From Candidatus Nomurabacteria bacterium (GTDB taxonomy: Bacteria > Patescibacteriota > Saccharimonadia > Saccharimonadales > UBA7683): 64,000 bases of DNA. Location of the stretch: contig JACKGS010000002.1 in assembly GCA_020631865.1 (NCBI GenBank), forward strand, positions 109,534-173,533, given 5' to 3'. This document shows positions 4,898 through 42,654 of the stretch, in pieces. The position numbers were made by a program, and so were the translations under genes. The stretch's first letter is position 1. Each line of letters begins with the position of its first letter. The notes under the pieces are model-generated. The model saw nothing but the letters and a program-made list of their open reading frames with translations. It was not told the DNA's origin and made no database searches.

Positions 4898-6531
<1,634 letters not shown>

Positions 6532-6686
6532 CTAGGGAGTATTAGCCTTAACTATGAGCAATCTAGTTAAGAGCGAGGTCGGTCTTGTTGTTTTAACGGA
6601 TCTATAAAACAACTTTGTTCCAATTTTTTGGAAAAGACTAGATTCACCTTTATTCAACAGCGACGTTACACTACTAAGTCTTTAAA

Positions 6687-7148: not shown

Positions 7149-7225
7149 TGGTGGGCGATGGTGGACTTGAACCACCGACCTCGTCATTATCAGTGACGCG
7201 CTCTAACCAACTGAGCTAAACGCCC
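7149..7225 (-). tRNA. tRNA-Ile (anticodon GAU), CCA encoded
   Basis: Reverse complement GGGCGTTTAGCTCAGTTGGTTAGAGCGCGTCACTGATAATGACGAGGTCGGTGGTTCAAGTCCACCATCGCCCACCA. Folds as a cloverleaf with anticodon loop CTGATAA and one T-T mismatch in the acceptor stem. Confidence 0.93.
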
Positions 7226-7266: not shown

Positions 7267-7343
7267 TGGTGGAGCAACAGGGACTCGAACCCTGGACCCC
7301 CGCCTTGCAAAGGCGGTGCTCTAGCCAACTGAGCTATTGCCCC
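7267..7343 (-). tRNA. tRNA-Ala (anticodon UGC), CCA encoded
   Basis: Reverse complement GGGGCAATAGCTCAGTTGGCTAGAGCACCGCCTTTGCAAGGCGGGGGTCCAGGGTTCGAGTCCCTGTTGCTCCACCA. The G3:U70 alanine identity pair is present. Confidence 0.95.
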
Positions 7344-7391: not shown

Positions 7392-7583
7392 CAAGATTAC
7401 ATTATAAATTAAAAAATTAGGGTAGCCTGTTAGTTGCAGGGGGTTAGTATGCACTGTGAGATGCGAATTAATGTAAAATCAACACTTACTATATTAACTG
7501 CAAAATATGATATTGTCTCAAACTCGTATCAGATGAAATATAACATAAGCGTTGTTCTAGATACATCAATATTCGATAAACTA

Positions 7584-7612
7584 TTGACCATAAACGAGGT
7601 GTTTGCTACTAT
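7584..7612 (+). promoter_or_regulatory. candidate promoter (CTATTGACC-17-TACTAT)
   Basis: TTGACC (7584-7589), 17 nt, TACTAT (7607-7612). Shares the CTATTGAC upstream context with the 16S promoter. Confidence 0.4.
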
Positions 7613-7645
7613 GTATGTACGAAGCGAATGTTTCAAGGGTTGAAA

Positions 7646-7701
7646 CCTCTGGCGATTGTATCCACCACAATTAGTGCACAATCATCAGAGGCTTTTTTAT
7701 T
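7646..7701 (+). terminator. terminator-like hairpin in the 23S upstream region
   Basis: CCTCTGGCGATTGT (7646-7659) pairs with ACAATCATCAGAGG (7678-7691), 12 of 14 positions. Followed by CTTTTTTATT. Confidence 0.4.
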
Positions 7702-7728
7702 GAAAATAATCTGTTTCGTAGAATGTAC

Positions 7729-7757
7729 TTTACAAGTAAAAATCCATCTGATACAAT
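7729..7757 (+). promoter_or_regulatory. candidate 23S-5S promoter
   Basis: TTTACA (7729-7734), 17 nt, TACAAT (7752-7757). About 200 nt upstream of 23S. Confidence 0.45.
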
Positions 7758-7956
7758 AATCAAGCTCTGGAGTTTAAATGAGAAATTGATAAGTCTGACA
7801 GATCATTCGAAGACTTAAACTAATCAATAACAGCATTTGAACTTTAGTTCACGCAAGAAATTGTATCTGGAGTTTGTAAATTAACAATTTAGTTGGTCTT
7901 TTAAATTAAATTGGACAACGGCAAGTTATTGATAATTATCAATAACTGGTCAAACC

Positions 7957-11225
<3,269 letters not shown>

Positions 11226-35057: not shown

Positions 35058-37859
35058 ATGGCACAGACAGCAGTGTTGGGTATTAAGCGCTATTTTACAA
35101 AAGAGGGCGCAGATCCGTATGAGATGTTTTCTTGGGTAGAGAGAGACTCCAAGATTGACAATCCAATGACAGGTAAAATTGCCTTTGAGCAAAAATCAGT
35201 TGAATTTCCAGATACCTGGAGTTTAAACGCTGTAAATATTGTTAGCCAGAAATACTTTACCGGAACACCGGGAACAAGCGAACGCGAGGCTAGTTTAAAG
35301 ACGTTAATTAATCGCGTTGCAGACACTGTAACGCGTCACGGTCAGCAAGAGGGCTATTTTGATGACGCTACTCAGGCAGAGACATTTAATGCAGAACTAA
35401 AATATATACTTACCTCACAACGAGCGGCATTTAATAGTCCGGTTTGGTTTAATATTGGAGCTGCAGACAGGTCTCAGCAGGCGAGTGCTTGCTTTATCTT
35501 GGCGGTAGATGACACTATGCCTTCAATTTTAAATTGGTATAAAGAAGAGGGTATGATCTTCAAGGGTGGATCGGGTTCGGGAATTAATATTAGCTCAATT
35601 AGATCTAGTTTTGAGCCCCTTGGTAAAAGCGCTGGTACATCTTCGGGGCCACTTTCTTTCATGCGTGGAGCAGATAGTTCCGCGGGGGCAATTAAATCTG
35701 GTGGTAAAACTAGACGAGCAGCCAAGATGGTTATTATGAACGCAGATCACCCAGATGTCGAAGAGTTTATTTGGTGTAAGGCAATTGAGGAGCGCAAGGC
35801 TAGAGTTCTTCAAGAAGCTGGTTTTGATATGGATTTGGATGGGAAAGATATTTTTTCAGTTCAATACCAAAATGCTAATAACTCAGTACGGGTAACAGAT
35901 GAATTTATGCAGGCAGTCGAAAACGACGAAGACTGGAACTTGGTTGGCGTAAAAGACAAGAAGGTTTATAAGACCGTCAAAGCACGCGATTTATGGCGTC
36001 AGATTGCCGAAAGTGCATGGGAATGTGCTGACCCAGGTTTACAGTTTGACACAACTATCAACCACTGGCATACCGCTCCTAATGCAGGTAGAATTAACGG
36101 CTCCAATCCATGTTCTGAATACATGCACCTAGATAATTCAGCATGTAACTTGGCTTCAATTAACTTACTCAAATATTTAAATGAAGATGGTACTTTTGAT
36201 GTTGAGGCATATAAACAGACGATTGAAATTGTATTCACGGCTCAAGAGATTTTAGTTGGATACTCGGAATATCCAACTGAAAATATAACTAAAAATGCCA
36301 GAGCATATCGCGAGCTTGGCTTGGGATATGCTAACCTAGGTGCTTTGCTTATGGCACAAGGTCTTCCGTATGATTCAGATGAGGGTCGAGCTCAAGCTGC
36401 TGCTCTTACGGCCATTATGACCGGCCATGCTTATGCTACATCGGCTAAGATTGCAAAGCAGGTGGGTACCTTCTCTGGTTTTAATAAAGACCGCGAAGGT
36501 ATGATGAGGGTTCTTTCCCAACATCGCGATGCAGTAAGAGACATAGATGCTCGTTTGGTAGCCGAAGATTTGCTTTCAACTGCTGCCGAGGTGTGGGATG
36601 AGGCAGTTGAGCTAGGTAATAAATACGGTGTTAGAAATTCACAGGCATCAGTACTTGCTCCAACGGGTACAATCGGCTTCATGATGGATTGTGACACTAC
36701 TGGTGTTGAGCCAGACTTCAGCCTTACTAAGTTTAAAAAATTGGTTGGTGGTGGAAATATGGTGATAGTAAATCAGACTATTCCACGCGCCCTAAAAACC
36801 ATGGGATATACTCAGGGTGAAACTGAAGATATAGTTGCTTACATTCATGAAAATGGAAACGTCATTAACGCTCCACATCTTAAAAAACAAGACTATGATG
36901 TGTTTGCATGCGCCGTAGGTGAAAATGCTATTCATTACAACGGACACGTTAAGATGATGGGGGCTGTGCAGCCGTTTATTTCTGGCGCAATTTCAAAAAC
37001 TGTAAATATGCCGGTTGAATCAACAGTTGAAGATATCGAAGATTTACATATGCTTTCATGGAGGCTTGGCCTAAAGGCAGTAGCAATTTATCGAGATGGC
37101 TCTAAGGTTGCCCAGCCACTTTCTTCTAAAAAAGAAGAAAAGAAGGAAGAAAGCTTGTCCGCACACGAGCCTCAGACTGCTGAGCAGGTAACAGAGCAGC
37201 TAGTCGCCATGCAGCCACATGTTCGTAGAGAAATTCCTCGTGTTCGAACAGCTAAGACATTTGAATTTAGAGTTTCAGATAGTAAAGGATTCGTAACTGT
37301 AGGTGAGTTTGAGGACGGCACGCCAGGAGAGTTATTCCTAAGAATCGCTAAGCAGGGCTCAACACTAGCTGGAATAATGGATGCCTTTGCAATCTCAGTT
37401 AGTCACGGTCTGCAATATGGAGTTCCACTCAAGAGCTATGTTAAGGCATTTACAAATATGTCATTTGCTCCATCTGGAATTACCGATGACGTTGAAATTA
37501 AAACAGCTTCAAGTTTGGTAGATTATATCTTCCGAAGATTAGCAAAAACATATCTGAGCTTAGACGATCAGCTAGAACTCGGATTGGTGAGCTTAGATGA
37601 TTTGGATGCTGAATTAATGTCACATCAAGCTAGCTTGCTAGACGACGCGATAGAAAGCCTAGAATCAACTGTAGATGATCAGAAAACTGATATCAAACAA
37701 GTTTCTATTCCTGTCCCAGAGATTCCGGTTCAAAGAATAAAGCCAGTAGTTTCAAGCGCCGAAATAGCACCTCTTTGCTACAATTGCGGGAACCAAACCC
37801 AACGTGCCGGTAGTTGCTACGTCTGTACATCTTGTGGAACCACTAGCGGCTGCAGCTAA
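35058..37859 (+). CDS. nrdJ: class II (adenosylcobalamin-dependent) ribonucleotide reductase
   Basis: 933 aa. Has NPCSE, SACNLASINL and TNMSFAPSG. Cys-rich C-terminal tail CYNCG...CYVCTSCG. SD TAGGAGGGG. Confidence 0.92.
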   Translation: MAQTAVLGIKRYFTKEGADPYEMFSWVERDSKIDNPMTGKIAFEQKSVEFPDTWSLNAVNIVSQKYFTGTPGTSEREASLKTLINRVADTVTRHGQQEGYFDDATQAETFNAELKYILTSQRAAFNSPVWFNIGAADRSQQASACFILAVDDTMPSILNWYKEEGMIFKGGSGSGINISSIRSSFEPLGKSAGTSSGPLSFMRGADSSAGAIKSGGKTRRAAKMVIMNADHPDVEEFIWCKAIEERKARVLQEAGFDMDLDGKDIFSVQYQNANNSVRVTDEFMQAVENDEDWNLVGVKDKKVYKTVKARDLWRQIAESAWECADPGLQFDTTINHWHTAPNAGRINGSNPCSEYMHLDNSACNLASINLLKYLNEDGTFDVEAYKQTIEIVFTAQEILVGYSEYPTENITKNARAYRELGLGYANLGALLMAQGLPYDSDEGRAQAAALTAIMTGHAYATSAKIAKQVGTFSGFNKDREGMMRVLSQHRDAVRDIDARLVAEDLLSTAAEVWDEAVELGNKYGVRNSQASVLAPTGTIGFMMDCDTTGVEPDFSLTKFKKLVGGGNMVIVNQTIPRALKTMGYTQGETEDIVAYIHENGNVINAPHLKKQDYDVFACAVGENAIHYNGHVKMMGAVQPFISGAISKTVNMPVESTVEDIEDLHMLSWRLGLKAVAIYRDGSKVAQPLSSKKEEKKEESLSAHEPQTAEQVTEQLVAMQPHVRREIPRVRTAKTFEFRVSDSKGFVTVGEFEDGTPGELFLRIAKQGSTLAGIMDAFAISVSHGLQYGVPLKSYVKAFTNMSFAPSGITDDVEIKTASSLVDYIFRRLAKTYLSLDDQLELGLVSLDDLDAELMSHQASLLDDAIESLESTVDDQKTDIKQVSIPVPEIPVQRIKPVVSSAEIAPLCYNCGNQTQRAGSCYVCTSCGTTSGCS

Positions 37860-37952
37860 ATGCATATTGGGCATAGTTTTTATTAACGAAGCGAGCATGA
37901 CTTAAATAAAGCATATCCACATAAGCTTTACCTAGATGATATACTAAGTTGT

Positions 37953-38219
37953 ATGAAAGTAGTTATTCTTTATAAGCCGATATCTGAACTTGCAAGCTCT
38001 GTTGAGGCCTATGCTCGTGAGTTTGAAAGAGAAACAGGTCGTCAACTCACTTTACTTAATTTTGAAAGTAAAGAAGGTATTGCGCTGGCTGGCGTGCATG
38101 ATATTGTTCGCCAGCCAGTATTGCTAGCCTTGCGGGATAGTAGTGAGCTAATTGAAGCGTGGCCTGATCGTGACAGCTGGCCGACTATGTCTCAGCTCAG
38201 CGCCTATATTAATAATTAA
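37953..38219 (+). CDS. hypothetical small protein
   Basis: 88-aa ORF with no recognisable motif. Confidence 0.5.
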   Translation: MKVVILYKPISELASSVEAYAREFERETGRQLTLLNFESKEGIALAGVHDIVRQPVLLALRDSSELIEAWPDRDSWPTMSQLSAYINN

Positions 38220-38232
38220 GTCTACTTCAACT

Positions 38233-38271
38233 TTGCAAGGATTAACCCTGCAACAGGGCTAATCCTTGCAA
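38233..38271. terminator. 18-bp hairpin (possible terminator / REP-like palindrome)
   Basis: TTGCAAGGATTAACCCTG-CAA-CAGGGCTAATCCTTGCAA with 17/18 positions paired. There is no T-run. Confidence 0.4.
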
Positions 38272-38284
38272 GAGGCGTGCGAGG

Positions 38285-38313
38285 TTGAAATTTTCAGCAA
38301 GATTATTTATTAT
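38285..38313 (+). promoter_or_regulatory. promoter of the structured leader
   Basis: TTGAAA (38285-38290), 17 nt, TATTAT (38308-38313). Confidence 0.55.
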
Positions 38314-38329
38314 AAGCATAGAAAAGCGT

Positions 38330-38495
38330 TTGAGTGGCTATCATCCACGAGCTGTGAGAAGAACGGAGAAATCTTAGTAGAACTCACCGGACCTGACCCG
38401 TAAGATCAGAAAATAAGTGCTAAAAGAATCACTTCTTTTGGAAGCCAGATGGTACCTCCCAATTTGGGATCTGGCAGACAAAGGAAGTGATTTTT
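38330..38495 (+). promoter_or_regulatory. T-box-like leader RNA (candidate tRNA-sensing riboswitch)
   Basis: - Antiterminator-like element: A1 GCCAGA (38444-49), 7-nt bulge UGGUACC (38450-56), A2 UCCC-AAUUU-GGGA, then A1' UCUGGC (38470-75).
- Upstream hairpin GUGG-CUAUCAU-CCAC has AUC-A in its loop.
- A second stem has an AGUAGAA internal loop.
- Small stem III AAGUG/CACUU.
- A 14-bp outer stem (38427-40 / 38479-92) is followed by a U-run. Confidence 0.45.
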
Positions 38496-38508
38496 ATATG
38501 GAGAAAAT

Positions 38509-39492
38509 ATGACAGAGAAGTTAAAGCAACCAAGATGGATCATTAGAGAAGCTGATTATGATGATTTACTAGATATCAGAACAATGCATGCTAAATCATG
38601 GTTAGAGACGTATCCAGATGAGGAAAACGGTGTTAGTGAAGATTGGGTTAGAGAGCGAGTTTCTGCCTGGACCACCCCTGATGGAATTCAAAAGTCCAGG
38701 GAGCATTTTAAAGATATATTTGGAAATCCGGATCATTTTTATAGAATTGCCGAGAAAGATGGAGAGATAGTTGGTTTGGTTCACGGGTCTCAATCAGATG
38801 GTTTGCAAAATTTGGAGGCACTTTACGTTGATAAGTCAGAGCATGGGAAGGGTTTAGCTCAAGATTTGATGGGTCTTGTTGATGAGTGGTTTGACGATAC
38901 ATTGCCGGTGAAGCTTGGAGTGGCAAGTTATAATGATCGTGCTATTAGATTTTATGAAAAATATGGTTTTAAAATTATACCGGATTCAAAGAGCATGTAT
39001 GCAGATAAAATTCCTATAGTTGATATGATTCGCCCGGGAGAAGGACAAAAATATCCAAATTTGAATCCAAGGCTGGAAATCAAAGATTCACCAGTTGAGG
39101 GCAGGGGAATTTTTACCAAAGTACCGATACATAAAGGCGAGAAGATTATTATTAATATTGACCCACAGCCTGTAGAAGTTCATGAATTTACAGATGTAGA
39201 ATTTGCAAAATTCAGAGAAGATTGCATAAAAAAGGGTTTGCAATGGGACTCTGTCTCACTTGGAAATGGGATGCATCGAGCGGCAATTTCTGACAGAGAT
39301 AAAAACCCAGAAAACTACGGTAATCATAGCTGTGATCCAAATTTAAGTTCTGACCATGTTGCATTACGTGATATTGAATCAGGCGAAGAATTGACGGTAG
39401 ATTATGCTGAGTTTTCAGATGTAAGCTGGTCTATGGAGTGCCATTGCGGTAGTAATAACTGTAAAGGGATCGTAAGAGGAAGGGTAAAGTGA
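38509..39492 (+). CDS. GNAT acetyltransferase - SET-domain methyltransferase fusion protein
   Basis: The N-terminal half has GNAT motifs (LEALYVDKSEHGKGLAQDLM, RAIRFYEKYGFK). The C-terminal half has SET motifs (GRGIFT, NHSCDPN, ELTVDY) plus a post-SET CHCGSNNCKG. Confidence 0.8.
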   Translation: MTEKLKQPRWIIREADYDDLLDIRTMHAKSWLETYPDEENGVSEDWVRERVSAWTTPDGIQKSREHFKDIFGNPDHFYRIAEKDGEIVGLVHGSQSDGLQNLEALYVDKSEHGKGLAQDLMGLVDEWFDDTLPVKLGVASYNDRAIRFYEKYGFKIIPDSKSMYADKIPIVDMIRPGEGQKYPNLNPRLEIKDSPVEGRGIFTKVPIHKGEKIIINIDPQPVEVHEFTDVEFAKFREDCIKKGLQWDSVSLGNGMHRAAISDRDKNPENYGNHSCDPNLSSDHVALRDIESGEELTVDYAEFSDVSWSMECHCGSNNCKGIVRGRVK

Positions 39493-39686
39493 TGAAAAAG
39501 GGTATAGTTTATATTATGACAACGGCAGTCTCTGGGTTGATTAAAATTGGCAAGACTCAAACAGCTAATTTTCCAGAAAGAATGAGGTTTCTGGAAGCAA
39601 ACGGTTACTATAATGTGGTTGGTCTGAAGAGATTTTTTGCAATAGAGTTAGATGATTATGACGATAAAGAAAGTTTAATTCAATGA
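39489..39686 (+). pseudogene. truncated T5orf172/GIY-YIG-like domain gene
   Basis: Has GIVYIMT...GLIKIGKT...RMRFL and stops after 65 aa. A +1 frame continues FNEIFNKK. The start overlaps the SET gene stop (GTGATGA). Confidence 0.5.
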
Positions 39687-39795
39687 AATCTTTAACAAAA
39701 AAGGAGTCGATACTGCGCATATTCATCGCTGCATCGACTCACTACTATCATTATAGCACTAATGGCTACTATATGTCAATACAGGAGGAAAAGAG

Positions 39796-42654
39796 ATGAA
39801 ATTTAAACACGGGACACGAAGACGAGCGTTGGAATATGAAAAAGATTGGGTAAAACGCTGGAAGGAAGATAAAACTTTTGAAAAGTCGGTAGAAAATCGA
39901 CCCGAGGATAACAAATGGGTATTTTATGATGGACCTCCATTCTTGACTGGCACACCGCATCACGGGCATTTACTTGTTTCATCTGTTAAAGATGTGATGG
40001 GTCGTTTTCATACTATGAAGGGTCAGCGTGTAGAGCGAACATGGGGCTGGGATTGTCATGGTTTGCCAGCGGAAGTGTTTGTAGAAAAGCAACTTGGTAT
40101 TAAAAACAAAAAAGAGATTGGTACTAAAATTAGTATTGAAGAATATGTTAAACAATGTCGTGCTGCAATGGTAAAAACTGGAACCGAGTGGGAAGATACT
40201 ATCGACCGACTTGGTCGTTGGGTTGAATTTGAGGGTGCCTACAAAACTATGGACAAAGAGTACATGGAAAGTGTGTGGTGGGCTTTCAAAGAAATGCATG
40301 AAAAAGGCAAGATTTACGAAGGTGAGAAAATCCTCGTTTATTGCACGAAAGATGCCACGCCAATTTCTAAATCTGAAGTTGCTATGGAAAACAGCTATCA
40401 GATGGATACTGACCCAAGTGTATTTGTTTACTTTAAGATTGAAGATGAAGACGAATATATGCTGGCTTGGACAACAACGCCGTGGACGTTGCCGGCAAAT
40501 GTAGCGGTGGCCGTAAATCCAGAAATCAACTATTCTCTTATCGAACATGGTAACAAGAGGTTTTATGTTGCTAGCGAAGCAGTGAGCCGTGTGATGCAAA
40601 ACGAGAAGAAGCAACCGCTTGAATACACAGTATTGAAGCAAATAAAAGGCGCAGAATTAGTTGGAAAACGCTATGAGCCACTGTTTGAAAACCATGGCCC
40701 TGATGCGCACCGAGTATTGGCGGCTGATTTTGTAACCGACACCGACGGTACTGGTTTGGTACATGAAGCTCCGGCTTACGGTGAAGAAGATTACGATTTG
40801 TGCAAAAAAGAGCATGTGCCAATTGTTTCCATTGTTGACGAAGACGGCCATTATACGTCTGGTCGCTGGATTGGCGAGAATATCTGGGAGGTCAATAAGG
40901 CAATCGCCAAAACACTTGTTGAAGAAGGTAGGGCGCTTAAGGTTGAGTATATTCGTCACGAATATCCGCATTGCCATCGCTGTGGAACCAAGCTTATGTA
41001 TCGCGCACACCCGAGCTGGTTTGTAGATATACAGTCGCAAAAAAAGGAAATGCTAGAAGAGAATGCCAAGACAAACTGGAATCCAGATAATCTGCGTACT
41101 GGTCGGTTCCACAACATTATTGAGCAGGCGCCAGATTGGAACATCTCTCGTGATCGCTATTGGGCAACGCCAATTCCAGTTTGGAAAGGATACCGTCAAG
41201 ATGGTACGGAGGTCGTGAAGGTTATCGGCAGTTACGATGAGTTTGAAGAGCTTACTGGCAAAAAGCTCGATGATTATCATTTGCCACAAGTTATGAATGT
41301 AACGTTTGAATGTGATGATATAGAAATGCGCCATATTGGCAAGGTGTTAGATTGTTGGTTTGAAAGTGGCTCAATGCCTTTTGCACAGTTCCATTACCCA
41401 TTTGAAAACAAAGAAAAATTTGAAAGCATGTTCCCGGCCGATTTCATTATTGAGGCGATTGACCAAACCCGTGGCTGGTTCAATAGTTTGATGGCGGTCA
41501 ATGTTGCGCTTTTTGGTCAGGCACCGTGGAAAAATCTTATTTGCACTGGGTTTGTTATGGCTGGTGATGGGAAAAAACTTAGTAAAAAACATAAAAACTA
41601 TACCGATCCAATTGAACTTATGGACAAAGTCTCGGCAGATTCTTATAGATTTACCATGCTCAGTAGTCCGCTTGCTAATGGTGATAATTATGTCATGCAA
41701 GATAAAGATATTAACGATGTGGCACGCAAACTTAGCATGGTTTGGAATATGTATGATTTCTTTACCATGTATGCTGAAGTTGATGGTTGGGAGTTTGACG
41801 GCGGGCTCGAAGATCCGCTTGAGGCGCTCGCAAATCCACTAGATATTTGGGTAGTGTCACGGTTACATCAGTTGGTTGGTGTGGTAGAGGAGCGAACTGA
41901 AGCATATGATTTACAGGGTGCACTAAAACCAATTCTGCCATTTCTAGATGATGCCTCCAATTGGTTTGTGCGACGTAGTCGCCGCCGTTTTTGGAAGTCG
42001 GAAGATGATGGCGACAAAGCTGATGCCTACAGAACATTACATTATGTGTTGGTTCGACTAGCGTACCTCTTGGCGCCGTTTACGCCGTTCCTGGCAGAAG
42101 AGTTGCACGAAAAACTTACTGGCGACAAAGAGTCAATTCATCTCAAAGATTGGCTACCAGCGGGTCGTGTAAATCAACTAGTTATGGATGAGATGGAGCA
42201 GGTGCGAGAGTATGTAAACGAAGGCTTGGGTTTACGTGCCAAGGCTCAACTTAAGGTGCGTCAACCACTGGCAAGTATTACAGTCCCAAGCATGGGTGAG
42301 CATGTTGATTTTGAACCGATTTTGATAGATGAGCTCAACGTTAAGTCAGTAAAAGTTGGCAAAGAAGTGACTATTGATGAAAATATCACTCCAGAACTAA
42401 AGCGAGAAGGCTTGATGCGTGAAGTGGTGCGTCATGTGCAGTCAGCTCGTAAAAACGCTGGTCTAAATGTTGATGATCGTATTCAGCTTTCACTTACAAC
42501 TACCGATGACCAACTTCAGGCTGCCATAACTGAGTACATCGAAACCATTAAAACCGAAACACTCGCAGTCGATATTGCGGAGGCGGAACTTGAGCATTTG
42601 TCAACCGTAAGGGTCGAGGGTACCGAACTAAAAATCTCTCTAACAAAAAACTAG
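39796..42654 (+). CDS. ileS: isoleucyl-tRNA synthetase
   Basis: HIGH motif PHHGHLL and KMSKS-like KLSKKHKN. 952 aa. SD AGGAGGAA. Confidence 0.96.
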   Translation: MKFKHGTRRRALEYEKDWVKRWKEDKTFEKSVENRPEDNKWVFYDGPPFLTGTPHHGHLLVSSVKDVMGRFHTMKGQRVERTWGWDCHGLPAEVFVEKQLGIKNKKEIGTKISIEEYVKQCRAAMVKTGTEWEDTIDRLGRWVEFEGAYKTMDKEYMESVWWAFKEMHEKGKIYEGEKILVYCTKDATPISKSEVAMENSYQMDTDPSVFVYFKIEDEDEYMLAWTTTPWTLPANVAVAVNPEINYSLIEHGNKRFYVASEAVSRVMQNEKKQPLEYTVLKQIKGAELVGKRYEPLFENHGPDAHRVLAADFVTDTDGTGLVHEAPAYGEEDYDLCKKEHVPIVSIVDEDGHYTSGRWIGENIWEVNKAIAKTLVEEGRALKVEYIRHEYPHCHRCGTKLMYRAHPSWFVDIQSQKKEMLEENAKTNWNPDNLRTGRFHNIIEQAPDWNISRDRYWATPIPVWKGYRQDGTEVVKVIGSYDEFEELTGKKLDDYHLPQVMNVTFECDDIEMRHIGKVLDCWFESGSMPFAQFHYPFENKEKFESMFPADFIIEAIDQTRGWFNSLMAVNVALFGQAPWKNLICTGFVMAGDGKKLSKKHKNYTDPIELMDKVSADSYRFTMLSSPLANGDNYVMQDKDINDVARKLSMVWNMYDFFTMYAEVDGWEFDGGLEDPLEALANPLDIWVVSRLHQLVGVVEERTEAYDLQGALKPILPFLDDASNWFVRRSRRRFWKSEDDGDKADAYRTLHYVLVRLAYLLAPFTPFLAEELHEKLTGDKESIHLKDWLPAGRVNQLVMDEMEQVREYVNEGLGLRAKAQLKVRQPLASITVPSMGEHVDFEPILIDELNVKSVKVGKEVTIDENITPELKREGLMREVVRHVQSARKNAGLNVDDRIQLSLTTTDDQLQAAITEYIETIKTETLAVDIAEAELEHLSTVRVEGTELKISLTKN

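Follow-up and report, generated by a model that had tools for sequence, protein, structure and literature searches.

A T-box leader of the short-Stem-I ileS class in Saccharibacteria whose terminator-like hairpin shares a strand with Stem III

How does a leader with the marks of a T-box riboswitch come to stand in front of a gene for a GNAT-SET fusion protein rather than directly before a gene for an aminoacyl-tRNA synthetase (aaRS), and what would it sense and control there? This question was raised by a first, sequence-only reading of a stretch of 64,000 nucleotides (nt) from Candidatus Nomurabacteria bacterium (GenBank assembly GCA_020631865.1, contig JACKGS010000002.1, positions 109,534 to 173,533), which is called the window here and to which all coordinates refer. 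The leader was re-read within 37900-38900; a full set of T-box modules was found at 38320-38495, and every sequence feature listed in that reading lies where it had been placed. The evidence presented below leaves little doubt that the leader is a true isoleucine T-box. It is a member of the T-box family and of its short-Stem-I ileS class, with a new host phylum and a new topology of the expression platform. Its parts are the following.

38285-38313, plus strand: sigma-70-type promoter, TTGAAA (38285-90), a 17-nt spacer and TATTAT (38308-13), scoring 10/12 in a promoter scan
38325-38353, plus strand: K-turn and ultrashort Stem I, recognised from anatomy, covariation and the layout of Nocardia farcinica
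38354-38387, plus strand: Stem II, from covariation of its lower helix and conserved S-turn bases
38388-38409, plus strand: Stem IIA/B pseudoknot of 22 nt, from the pairing statistics of IIA and IIB
38415-38443, plus strand: 5′ part of the discriminator (purine string, Stem III, AA), from conservation and pairing
38444-38475, plus strand: antiterminator (A1, bulge, A2), from covariation and invariance of the bulge
38424-38495, plus strand: intrinsic-terminator-like hairpin, the OFF fold, from the minimum-free-energy fold, conserved pairing and the U-run
38500-04, plus strand: Shine-Dalgarno (SD) sequence GGAGA, read from the sequence

The transcript probably starts near 38320, and in homologues a -10-like box was seen by inspection 8-12 nt 5′ of the K-turn. 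In the window the latter consists of a C-stem AGC (38325-27)/GCU (38351-53), the bulge GUUU (38328-31) and the tandem GA (38332-33)/GA (38349-50), and it is followed by a Stem I of 4 base pairs (bp), GUGG (38334-37)/CCAC (38345-48), around the 7-nt loop CUAUCAU, in which the specifier AUC (38340-42) precedes the purine A at 38343. Stem II has a lower helix GUGAG (38354-58)/CUCAC (38383-87) and a short upper helix with a GAAA cap; its S-turn (loop E) is formed by GAA (38361-63) and GUAGA (38377-81), with AGUAGAA on the 3′ side. In the pseudoknot, helix IIA, CGG (38388-90)/CCG (38398-400), is interleaved with helix IIB, CUGA (38393-96)/UCAG (38406-09), and the F-box CCGUAA lies at 38398-403. The discriminator starts with the purine string AAGUG (38415-19), which fits the motif RRRxG, and continues with Stem III, CUAAAAG (38420-26)/CUUUUGG (38435-41), closing the loop AAUCACUU and followed by AA (38442-43). 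Helix A1, GCCAGA (38444-49)/UCUGGC (38470-75), is broken on its 5′ side by the 7-nt bulge UGGUACC (38450-56) and capped by helix A2, UCCC-AAUUU-GGGA. The variable base of the UGGN..ACC bulge is U, complementary to A73 of tRNA-Ile.

T-boxes are defined by a K-turn, a specifier followed by a purine, a Stem II S-turn with a string of five purines, and the arrangement 5′-RRRxG-Stem III-AA-3′ (PMC7583486). A compact IIA/B pseudoknot of about 21 nt carries the F-box, which reads CCGUCA in N. farcinica, and helices A1 and A2 enclose a bulge of 7 nt whose 5′ edge carries UGGN, with a G.U pair at the base of A2 (PMC7583486). Every item of this list is present in the window except the G.U pair. The folding energy of the leader is -54.5 kcal/mol (z = -3.4), a value that no fold of 200 shuffled sequences matched.

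Whether these modules are real helices was judged from homologues. A scan of metagenomes with the DNA pattern CTTCTTTTGGAANNNNNNTGGTACC, which fixed CTTCTTTTGGAA and TGGTACC, that is, the Stem III 3′ strand and the bulge, returned at least 120 loci, one of which (L112) is a chance match. Eight lineages were reached through homologues of the neighbouring 88-aa open reading frame (ORF), without any selection on the RNA sequence. A search of genome contigs with the GNAT-SET protein yielded a single locus (L001), from a metagenome-assembled genome of Candidatus Saccharibacteria, in which the leader lies again 3′ of the 88-aa ORF and carries large insertions within Stem II and atop A2. A seed alignment of 32 sequences (alignment A1) gave the covariance model R1, and a larger alignment (A3) holds 99 sequences. 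R1 finds one copy per locus; the copy of the window scores 164.6 bits (E = 1.7e-34), near the top of the family, and a scan of the window with the same model gave no second copy. When the discriminator fold and the pseudoknot were laid on alignment A3, 96.6% of the cells were paired and 22 of 33 pairs had changes on both sides. None of 500 shuffles reached the observed values, and sliding the partners by 1-3 columns lowered pairing to at most 51%. Helix by helix, compensatory changes and pairing are distributed as follows.

Stem I: compensatory changes at 4 of 4 pairs, 99% paired
Stem II (lower helix): 5 of 5, 93.9% paired
IIA: 1 of 3, the other two invariant, 99.7% paired
IIB: 4 of 4, 81% paired
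A1: 4 of 6, 99.8% paired
A2: 3 of 4, 100% paired
Stem III: 1 of 7 (a single cell), 98.6-99% paired

The remaining changes in Stem III are one-sided and keep the pairing (A to G, U to C). Conservation of the unpaired elements points in the same direction. The Stem II bases GAA and UAGA occur in nearly all copies that have a Stem II, the bulge is invariant also in the eight lineages found by synteny, and AUC lies within the 7-nt loop of all full-length copies; apparent exceptions to AUC in alignment A3 proved to be misalignments caused by extra hairpins. The C-stem of the K-turn covaries with at least seven combinations (AGC/GCU, UCC/GGA, GGC/GCC, GGC/GUC, UGC/GCA, ACG/CGU, UAC/GUA), a result that comes mainly from inspection because automated counts were only partial: fixed offsets were uninformative, and excision of inserted hairpins allowed a partial count (60/95). 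Many homologues have a hairpin inserted in the K-turn bulge, and insertions also occur in the Stem III loop. As an observation apart, one homologue (L106, 611-753) is without Stem II and its S-turn, so that Stem I nearly abuts the pseudoknot; it scores 121 bits with R1.

The alignment also revised parts of the sequence-only reading. In that reading AAGUG paired with CACUU as Stem III, a helix that was rejected because position 87 of the alignment, within the purine string, is free (A, C and U at about one third each) while its supposed partner never changes; A85, G86 and G88 are invariant, AAGNG fits RRRxG, and Stem III is instead CUAAAAG/CUUUUGG. What had been drawn as a small CUGA/UCAG hairpin is helix IIB of the pseudoknot. 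A leucine specifier, suggested as an alternative from GAA-CUC-A, fails because CUC forms part of Stem II's 3′ strand, the covarying partner of GUGAG. The antiterminator-type UGGUACC bulge, on the other hand, was borne out by the covariation of A1 and A2 and by its invariance in the synteny-derived lineages.

The specifier AUC predicts an isoleucine-related target, and the surroundings of the leader agree with it. The relevant genes of the window are these.

35058-37859, plus strand: class II ribonucleotide reductase gene (gene annotation)
37953-38219, plus strand: 88-aa ORF (gene annotation)
38509-39492, plus strand: coding sequence of a GNAT-SET fusion, 327 aa, probably the first regulated gene (Acetyltransf_1, 3e-14; SET, 3.5e-11)
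39494-39686, plus strand: truncated T5orf172 (GIY-YIG-like) ORF, a cargo remnant read from the sequence
39796-42654, plus strand: ileS, type 2 isoleucyl-tRNA synthetase (IleRS), 952 aa (tRNA-synt_1, Anticodon_1, DUF5915)
7149-7225, minus strand: tRNA-Ile(GAU), the predicted ligand, whose anticodon GAU fits AUC and whose A73-CCA end (CCA encoded) fits UGGU of the bulge

The best solved relative of the window IleRS is 8c8u (IleRS), and a rhodanese gene follows ileS on the plus strand. As had been claimed from the letters alone, the leader does not stand directly before an aaRS gene, since the GNAT-SET gene and the T5orf172 fragment intervene, and a tRNA-Ile(GAU) with discriminator A is encoded in the window. 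In homologues the shared order is ftsZ-nrdR-nrdJ-orf88-leader-[0 to 6 cargo genes]-ileS-rhodanese-zincin, and in L008 the leader lies directly before ileS. Of the matches listed (134 instances), 107 are followed on the same strand by an IleRS gene; in 35 of these ileS is within 260 nt of the leader, and in the other 72 it follows at 0.4-5.2 kb with cargo genes between. At 26 of the 27 listed loci where ileS was not seen, the sequence available downstream is at most 3.3 kb. Together with the retention of AUC in full-length homologues and the covariation of Stem I, Stem II, IIA/B, A1 and A2, this arrangement upholds the assignment to isoleucine. The best explanation is that the leader belongs at the 5′ end of an operon whose last gene, ileS, is its ancestral target. 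In the window it probably controls the GNAT-SET gene and, by read-through, ileS.

One listed locus differs (L064, 650-9593): it is the only one with 9 kb of downstream sequence and no ileS. A GNAT gene and the efflux genes HlyD/MacB/OEP stand behind the T-box there, with a MetRS gene at 7545-9593.

Which kind of T-box is this? The closest likeness is to the ileS T-boxes of Actinobacteria (N. farcinica, PDB 6UFM; Mycobacterium tuberculosis, PDB 6UFG; M. smegmatis), in which the order of modules is the same and the motifs are near-identical. The sequences of the decoding modules of N. farcinica T99 and M. tuberculosis T87 ileS are given in Supplementary Table 2 of PMC10651847; the decoding halves of the Saccharibacteria copies are colinear with both (alignment A4), and the identity of 45-69% to these two mostly overlaps the 53-74% range found among the Saccharibacteria copies themselves. 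Both groups have the K-turn pattern xxC-bulge-GA ... GA-Gxx, a Stem I of 4-5 bp, AUC-A in the terminal loop and no elbow platform. The K-turn/Stem I layout of N. farcinica, GGC-GAC-GA-stem-CCAUCA-stem-GA-GCC, matches that of the window, and in each the S-turn GAA is spaced 21 nt from the specifier (A16 to G37 in N. farcinica). The blocks common to Actinobacteria and Saccharibacteria include GA-stem-(C/U)NAUCA-stem-GA, AAGAA, AGUAGAA, CCGU(C/A)A, RAG/RRRxG, Stem III and the UGGN bulge. Absence of the platform defines the actinobacterial short-Stem-I class, in which insertions in Stem III and A2 are typical (PMC7583486), and such insertions are found in the Saccharibacteria copies as well. The differences are these: the Stem I loop has 7 nt in Saccharibacteria and 6 in Actinobacteria, and the host phylum is Saccharibacteria (Patescibacteria/Candidate Phyla Radiation) and not Actinobacteria. 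Further, the actinobacterial switches are translational and sequester the SD, whereas the Saccharibacteria leader ends in a hairpin and a U-run with the SD outside. The regulated gene here is an ileS of the ‘eukaryote-like’ type 2, and the IleRS enzymes of Actinobacteria are likewise of type 2.

With the transcriptional T-boxes of Firmicutes (RF00230; B. subtilis tyrS, glyQS) the leader shares the specifier pairing, K-turn, S-turn, F-box pseudoknot, the RRRxG-Stem III-AA arrangement, the succession A1/7-nt UGGNACC/A2 and a terminator, followed by a U-run, that is more stable than the antiterminator fold. Unlike them, it is without the long Stem I, the specifier internal loop and the distal double T-loop platform, and of the 14-nt Firmicutes consensus AGGGUGGNACCGCG it matches the UGGUACC portion only. 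In Firmicutes the 3′ strands of A1 and A2 supply the terminator; here the Stem III loop and 3′ strand do so, and the terminator encloses A1 and A2.

The latter difference concerns the expression platform. In the canonical switch the terminator takes its 5′ strand from the 3′ strands of A1 and A2 (PMC7583486). No downstream complement of these strands was found by eye in the following ~100 nt of the window, and the strand CAAAGGAAGUGA (38479-90) is complementary not to 38457-75 but to UCACUUCUUUUG (38429-40), which comprises the Stem III loop and the Stem III 3′ strand. Directly 3′ of CAAAGGAAGUGA stands the U-run UUUUU (38491-95), with which AAGAA (38424-28) can pair, and 13 nt separate the U-run from the ATG at 38509. 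An outer stem of 14 bp leading into a U-run, and with it two exclusive folds, had been proposed from the letters; the exclusive folds and the U-run stand, but the stem consists of 12 core pairs plus 5 A-U/G-U pairs that extend into the U-run. The terminator arrangement had also been called atypical, and so it is, since it pairs with Stem III elements and leaves A1 and A2 intact.

The OFF hairpin is the minimum-free-energy fold and keeps A1 and A2 as its apical part; it reaches -30.3 to -35.5 kcal/mol, against -19.2 kcal/mol for the Stem III (discriminator) fold. Because the terminator fold is the more stable one, OFF would be the default state, as in known transcriptional T-boxes. On alignment A3 the terminator fold is 98.5% paired (97-99% in the helices of the main stem, 85% at the outermost pair), and the first four positions of the U-run are 99-100% conserved, the fifth 81%. 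The invariant strand UCACUUCUUUUGG has two mutually exclusive and conserved pairings, either with CUAAAAG in Stem III or with CAAAGGAAGUGA in a stem of 12-17 bp. A short ORF past the SD-like strand, AUG GAG AAA AUA UGA (38498-38512), was also considered and dropped because homologues are without it.

A different use of the same hairpin has to be weighed at this point, namely a T-box that acts on translation like its actinobacterial relatives; the long hairpin would then serve as sequestrator or structural element instead of terminating transcription. Translational T-boxes are characterised by an ultrashort Stem I and by insertions in Stem III and A2 (PMC7583486), the switching strand AUCACUUCUUUUGG (38429-38441) resembles the 3′ end of 16S rRNA, ACCUCCUUUCU / GGAUUACCUCCUUUCU (window 6520-6535), and its terminator partner (38479-38490; AAAGAGGUGA in most copies) looks like a strong SD. 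These resemblances are observations in their own right, and the terminator stem may be derived from an SD/anti-SD type of sequestrator helix. The position of the signals argues against present translational control, however: GGAGA (38500-04) and the start codon of the window lie outside the hairpin, at least 5 nt past the U-run, and the same holds for copies directly before ileS, such as L034 and L096. The SD-like strand, for its part, stands some 20 nt away from the conserved start of IleRS, and a conserved U-run after a hairpin is the signature of an intrinsic terminator. With the SD outside and a U-run after the hairpin, the element looks transcriptional, and we consider translational control unlikely.

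Under control by termination, the parts could work together as follows. The anticodon of tRNA-Ile(GAU) would pair with AUC in the Stem I loop, and the K-turn and the pseudoknot would place the Stem II S-turn so that it latches the three-base-pair duplex of anticodon and specifier. If the tRNA is uncharged, its 3′ ACCA would pair with UGGU at the bulge's 5′ edge and stack on A1; AAGUG-Stem III-AA would then lock the discriminator, Stem III would be kept closed and RNA polymerase would read through. If the tRNA is charged or absent, CAAAGGAAGUGA would invade from the Stem III loop (UCACUU) and displace the Stem III 5′ strand, yielding a helix of 12-17 bp under intact A1 and A2 that ends at the U-run, and transcription would stop 13 nt before the first start codon. 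As the terminator would invade Stem III rather than unzip A1, the charging signal would be read through the latch of Stem III and the purine string. The invasion mechanism taken by itself is somewhat favoured, while the overall explanation, an isoleucine T-box with terminator control through competition for Stem III, is held with good confidence.

Several observations weigh against this explanation. As a rule, a long Stem I whose platform binds the tRNA elbow is required in transcriptional T-boxes (PMC7583486); the window has neither the long stem nor the distal interdigitated T-loop platform, its Stem I having 4 bp and a 7-nt loop; an ultrashort Stem I together with apparent transcriptional control is a combination that PMC7583486 regards as unusual. 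The G.U wobble at the base of A2 acts in solved T-boxes as a steric sieve against aminoacyl groups (PMC7583486); it is present in 85 of 97 copies, whereas the pair in the window (38457/38469) is U-A, as in 7 other copies. Changes in Stem III and in the terminator stem are mostly one-sided (A-U to G-U), with few double compensatory ones. In the metagenome set the invariance of CTTCTTTTGGAA and TGGTACC exists by construction, so that an independent test of it comes only from the eight lineages found by synteny. In the window ileS is preceded by a 110-nt gap and a hairpin, and it is presumed to be co-transcribed with the leader. At 93 bits, its gathering score, RF00230 has no match in the window; it has none in the leader at E <= 10, and none of 20 homologue loci reaches 93 bits. 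Finally, we infer tRNA binding, termination and read-through from the parts, which alone are observed.

The result with RF00230 bears on whether the resemblance to a T-box arose by chance in an AT-rich leader. The heptamer TGGNACC is common, with 24 copies in the window against about 16 expected; it is unremarkable alone, so that its weight lies in the structural context. The sequence-only reading had held that lack of an RF00230 match combined with lack of covariation would speak against a T-box; the match is indeed lacking for the window, but covariation is strong. With relaxed thresholds RF00230 matched 4 of 8 homologues below the gathering score, namely L035 (38.6 bits), L124 (33.9), L137 (30.6) and L069 (23.4), with E-values of 8.6e-6, 1.4e-4, 1e-3 and a marginal 0.07. 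The alignment of the model to L035 deletes 69 model positions of the distal Stem I and places the model's Stem II GAA/AGUA, CCGUUA, AAAGuG, Stem III, AA and A1-UGGUACC-A2 on the bases that had been assigned independently, AAGCG among them. A scan with other riboswitch classes of Rfam at E <= 10 gave chance-level matches only, such as SAM-II at 14.6 bits and some snoRNAs. More than 100 homologues, covariation in seven helices, a specifier that agrees with the downstream synthetase, a decoding half colinear with crystallised T-boxes and RF00230 matches in homologues with E-values as low as 3e-7 leave coincidence as an explanation that we regard as already refuted.

The absence of an RF00230 match and of the A2-base G.U pair could also be taken to mean that the window copy is a decayed T-box, or that the element is a free-standing small RNA gene, T-box-like or T-box-derived, that does not control the genes downstream. 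Its own promoter and strong terminator, which delimit about 175 nt, the foreign genes between leader and ileS, and the locus without ileS within 9 kb (L064) would suit such a gene. Decay, however, sits badly with a score near the top of the family model. A small RNA would not explain why the element keeps the same orientation and place ahead of an operon with ileS as its last gene in 107 of the 134 listed loci, nor why each of the two pairings open to the switching strand is conserved, which is expected of a switch and not of a plain terminator; moreover, the cargo genes of relatives share a few bases with each other and with ileS, in an operon-like manner. Either version is very improbable. 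Housekeeping RNAs (6S, signal recognition particle RNA, RNase P) had also been considered on account of the promoter and terminator, and were ruled out by the homologues and their ileS synteny.

An isoleucine T-box that heads an operon offers an answer to the opening question of why a GNAT-SET gene stands behind the leader. The gap between T-box and ileS (window 38509-39795; loci L001-L138) is an insertion hotspot. Same-strand cargo, often overlapping by a few bases, fills it in 72 of the 107 listed loci with ileS, and the types of cargo include GNAT and GNAT-SET acetyltransferases, a PemK toxin, a CdiA-C toxin with a 126-aa partner, a GDSL lipase, an inositol monophosphatase, an EcoRI-like adenine methylase, GmrSD(DUF262)-HNH, T5orf172 and a NucS-like protein. 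The T5orf172 remnant of the window has a full-length relative of 199 aa in L100 that matches PF10544 (T5orf172).

Other observations were made around the leader and its genes. Just 5′ of the start of ileS, the minus strand carries a promoter-like site, a perfect TTGACA-18-TATAAT with TG extension (39750-39779), that points away from ileS into the T5orf172 remnant. Between the 88-aa ORF and the T-box promoter lies a near-perfect inverted repeat of 17 bp without a U-run (38227-38272; TTGCAAGGATTAACCCTG / CAGGGCTAATCCTTGCAA), and L002 carries a related repeat. A palindromic element of about 29 nt (TGTCATCCTGAACTTGATTCAGGATCCAA) occurs in several copies per kb in L010 (651-1667), L013 (5861-6145) and L001 (4115-4931), one copy being in the Stem II apical loop and another just 3′ of the terminator; it looks like a small REP-like (repetitive extragenic palindromic) or MITE-like (miniature inverted-repeat transposable element) repeat that colonises variable loops. 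The tRNA-Ile(GAU) gene and a tRNA-Ala(UGC) gene (7267-7343) are on the minus strand between the plus-strand 16S (4898-6531) and 23S (7962-11221) genes, which with 1634 and 3260 nt exceed the Rfam models by ~100 and 335 nt, and this points to insertions.

Saccharibacteria are ultrasmall parasites that depend on a host and are auxotrophic for amino acids, and the cultivated ones live on actinobacterial hosts. The likeness of the leader to actinobacterial ileS T-boxes, seen at the level of sequence, raises the question of a transfer between parasite and host, and the leader may have been exchanged between Saccharibacteria and Actinobacteria. Within the full-text literature outside subscription papers, no article was found in which T-boxes appear alongside Saccharibacteria, TM7 or the Candidate Phyla Radiation. 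Riboswitches figure only as synthetic tools to import in a 2024 perspective on Patescibacteria, the translational Ile model of TBDB has been applied to Actinobacteria only, and the TBDB text is without Saccharibacteria or Patescibacteria. RF00230 misses the whole Saccharibacteria family at its curated threshold.

According to the current view, transcriptional T-boxes require a long Stem I for fast capture of the tRNA, and switching proceeds by shearing A1 (PMC7583486). The Saccharibacteria family seems to break both rules, and this opens the part played by Stem III in signal transduction to direct tests. The most far-reaching picture, for and against which we see the balance as even, is that of a Saccharibacteria-wide T-box variant with an ultrashort Stem I of actinobacterial type, which would sense tRNA-Ile and act on transcription by invading Stem III from a toehold in its loop without unzipping A1; its leader would perhaps have been exchanged with the parasitised Actinobacteria, and the gap between leader and ileS would be a landing site for toxin, defence and acetyltransferase genes expressed on isoleucine starvation. 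Cargo toxin and defence genes would thereby fall under isoleucine-starvation control. If the element is a native tRNA-sensing switch, it would be the first amino-acid sensor described in Saccharibacteria and a ready regulatory part for their new genetics.

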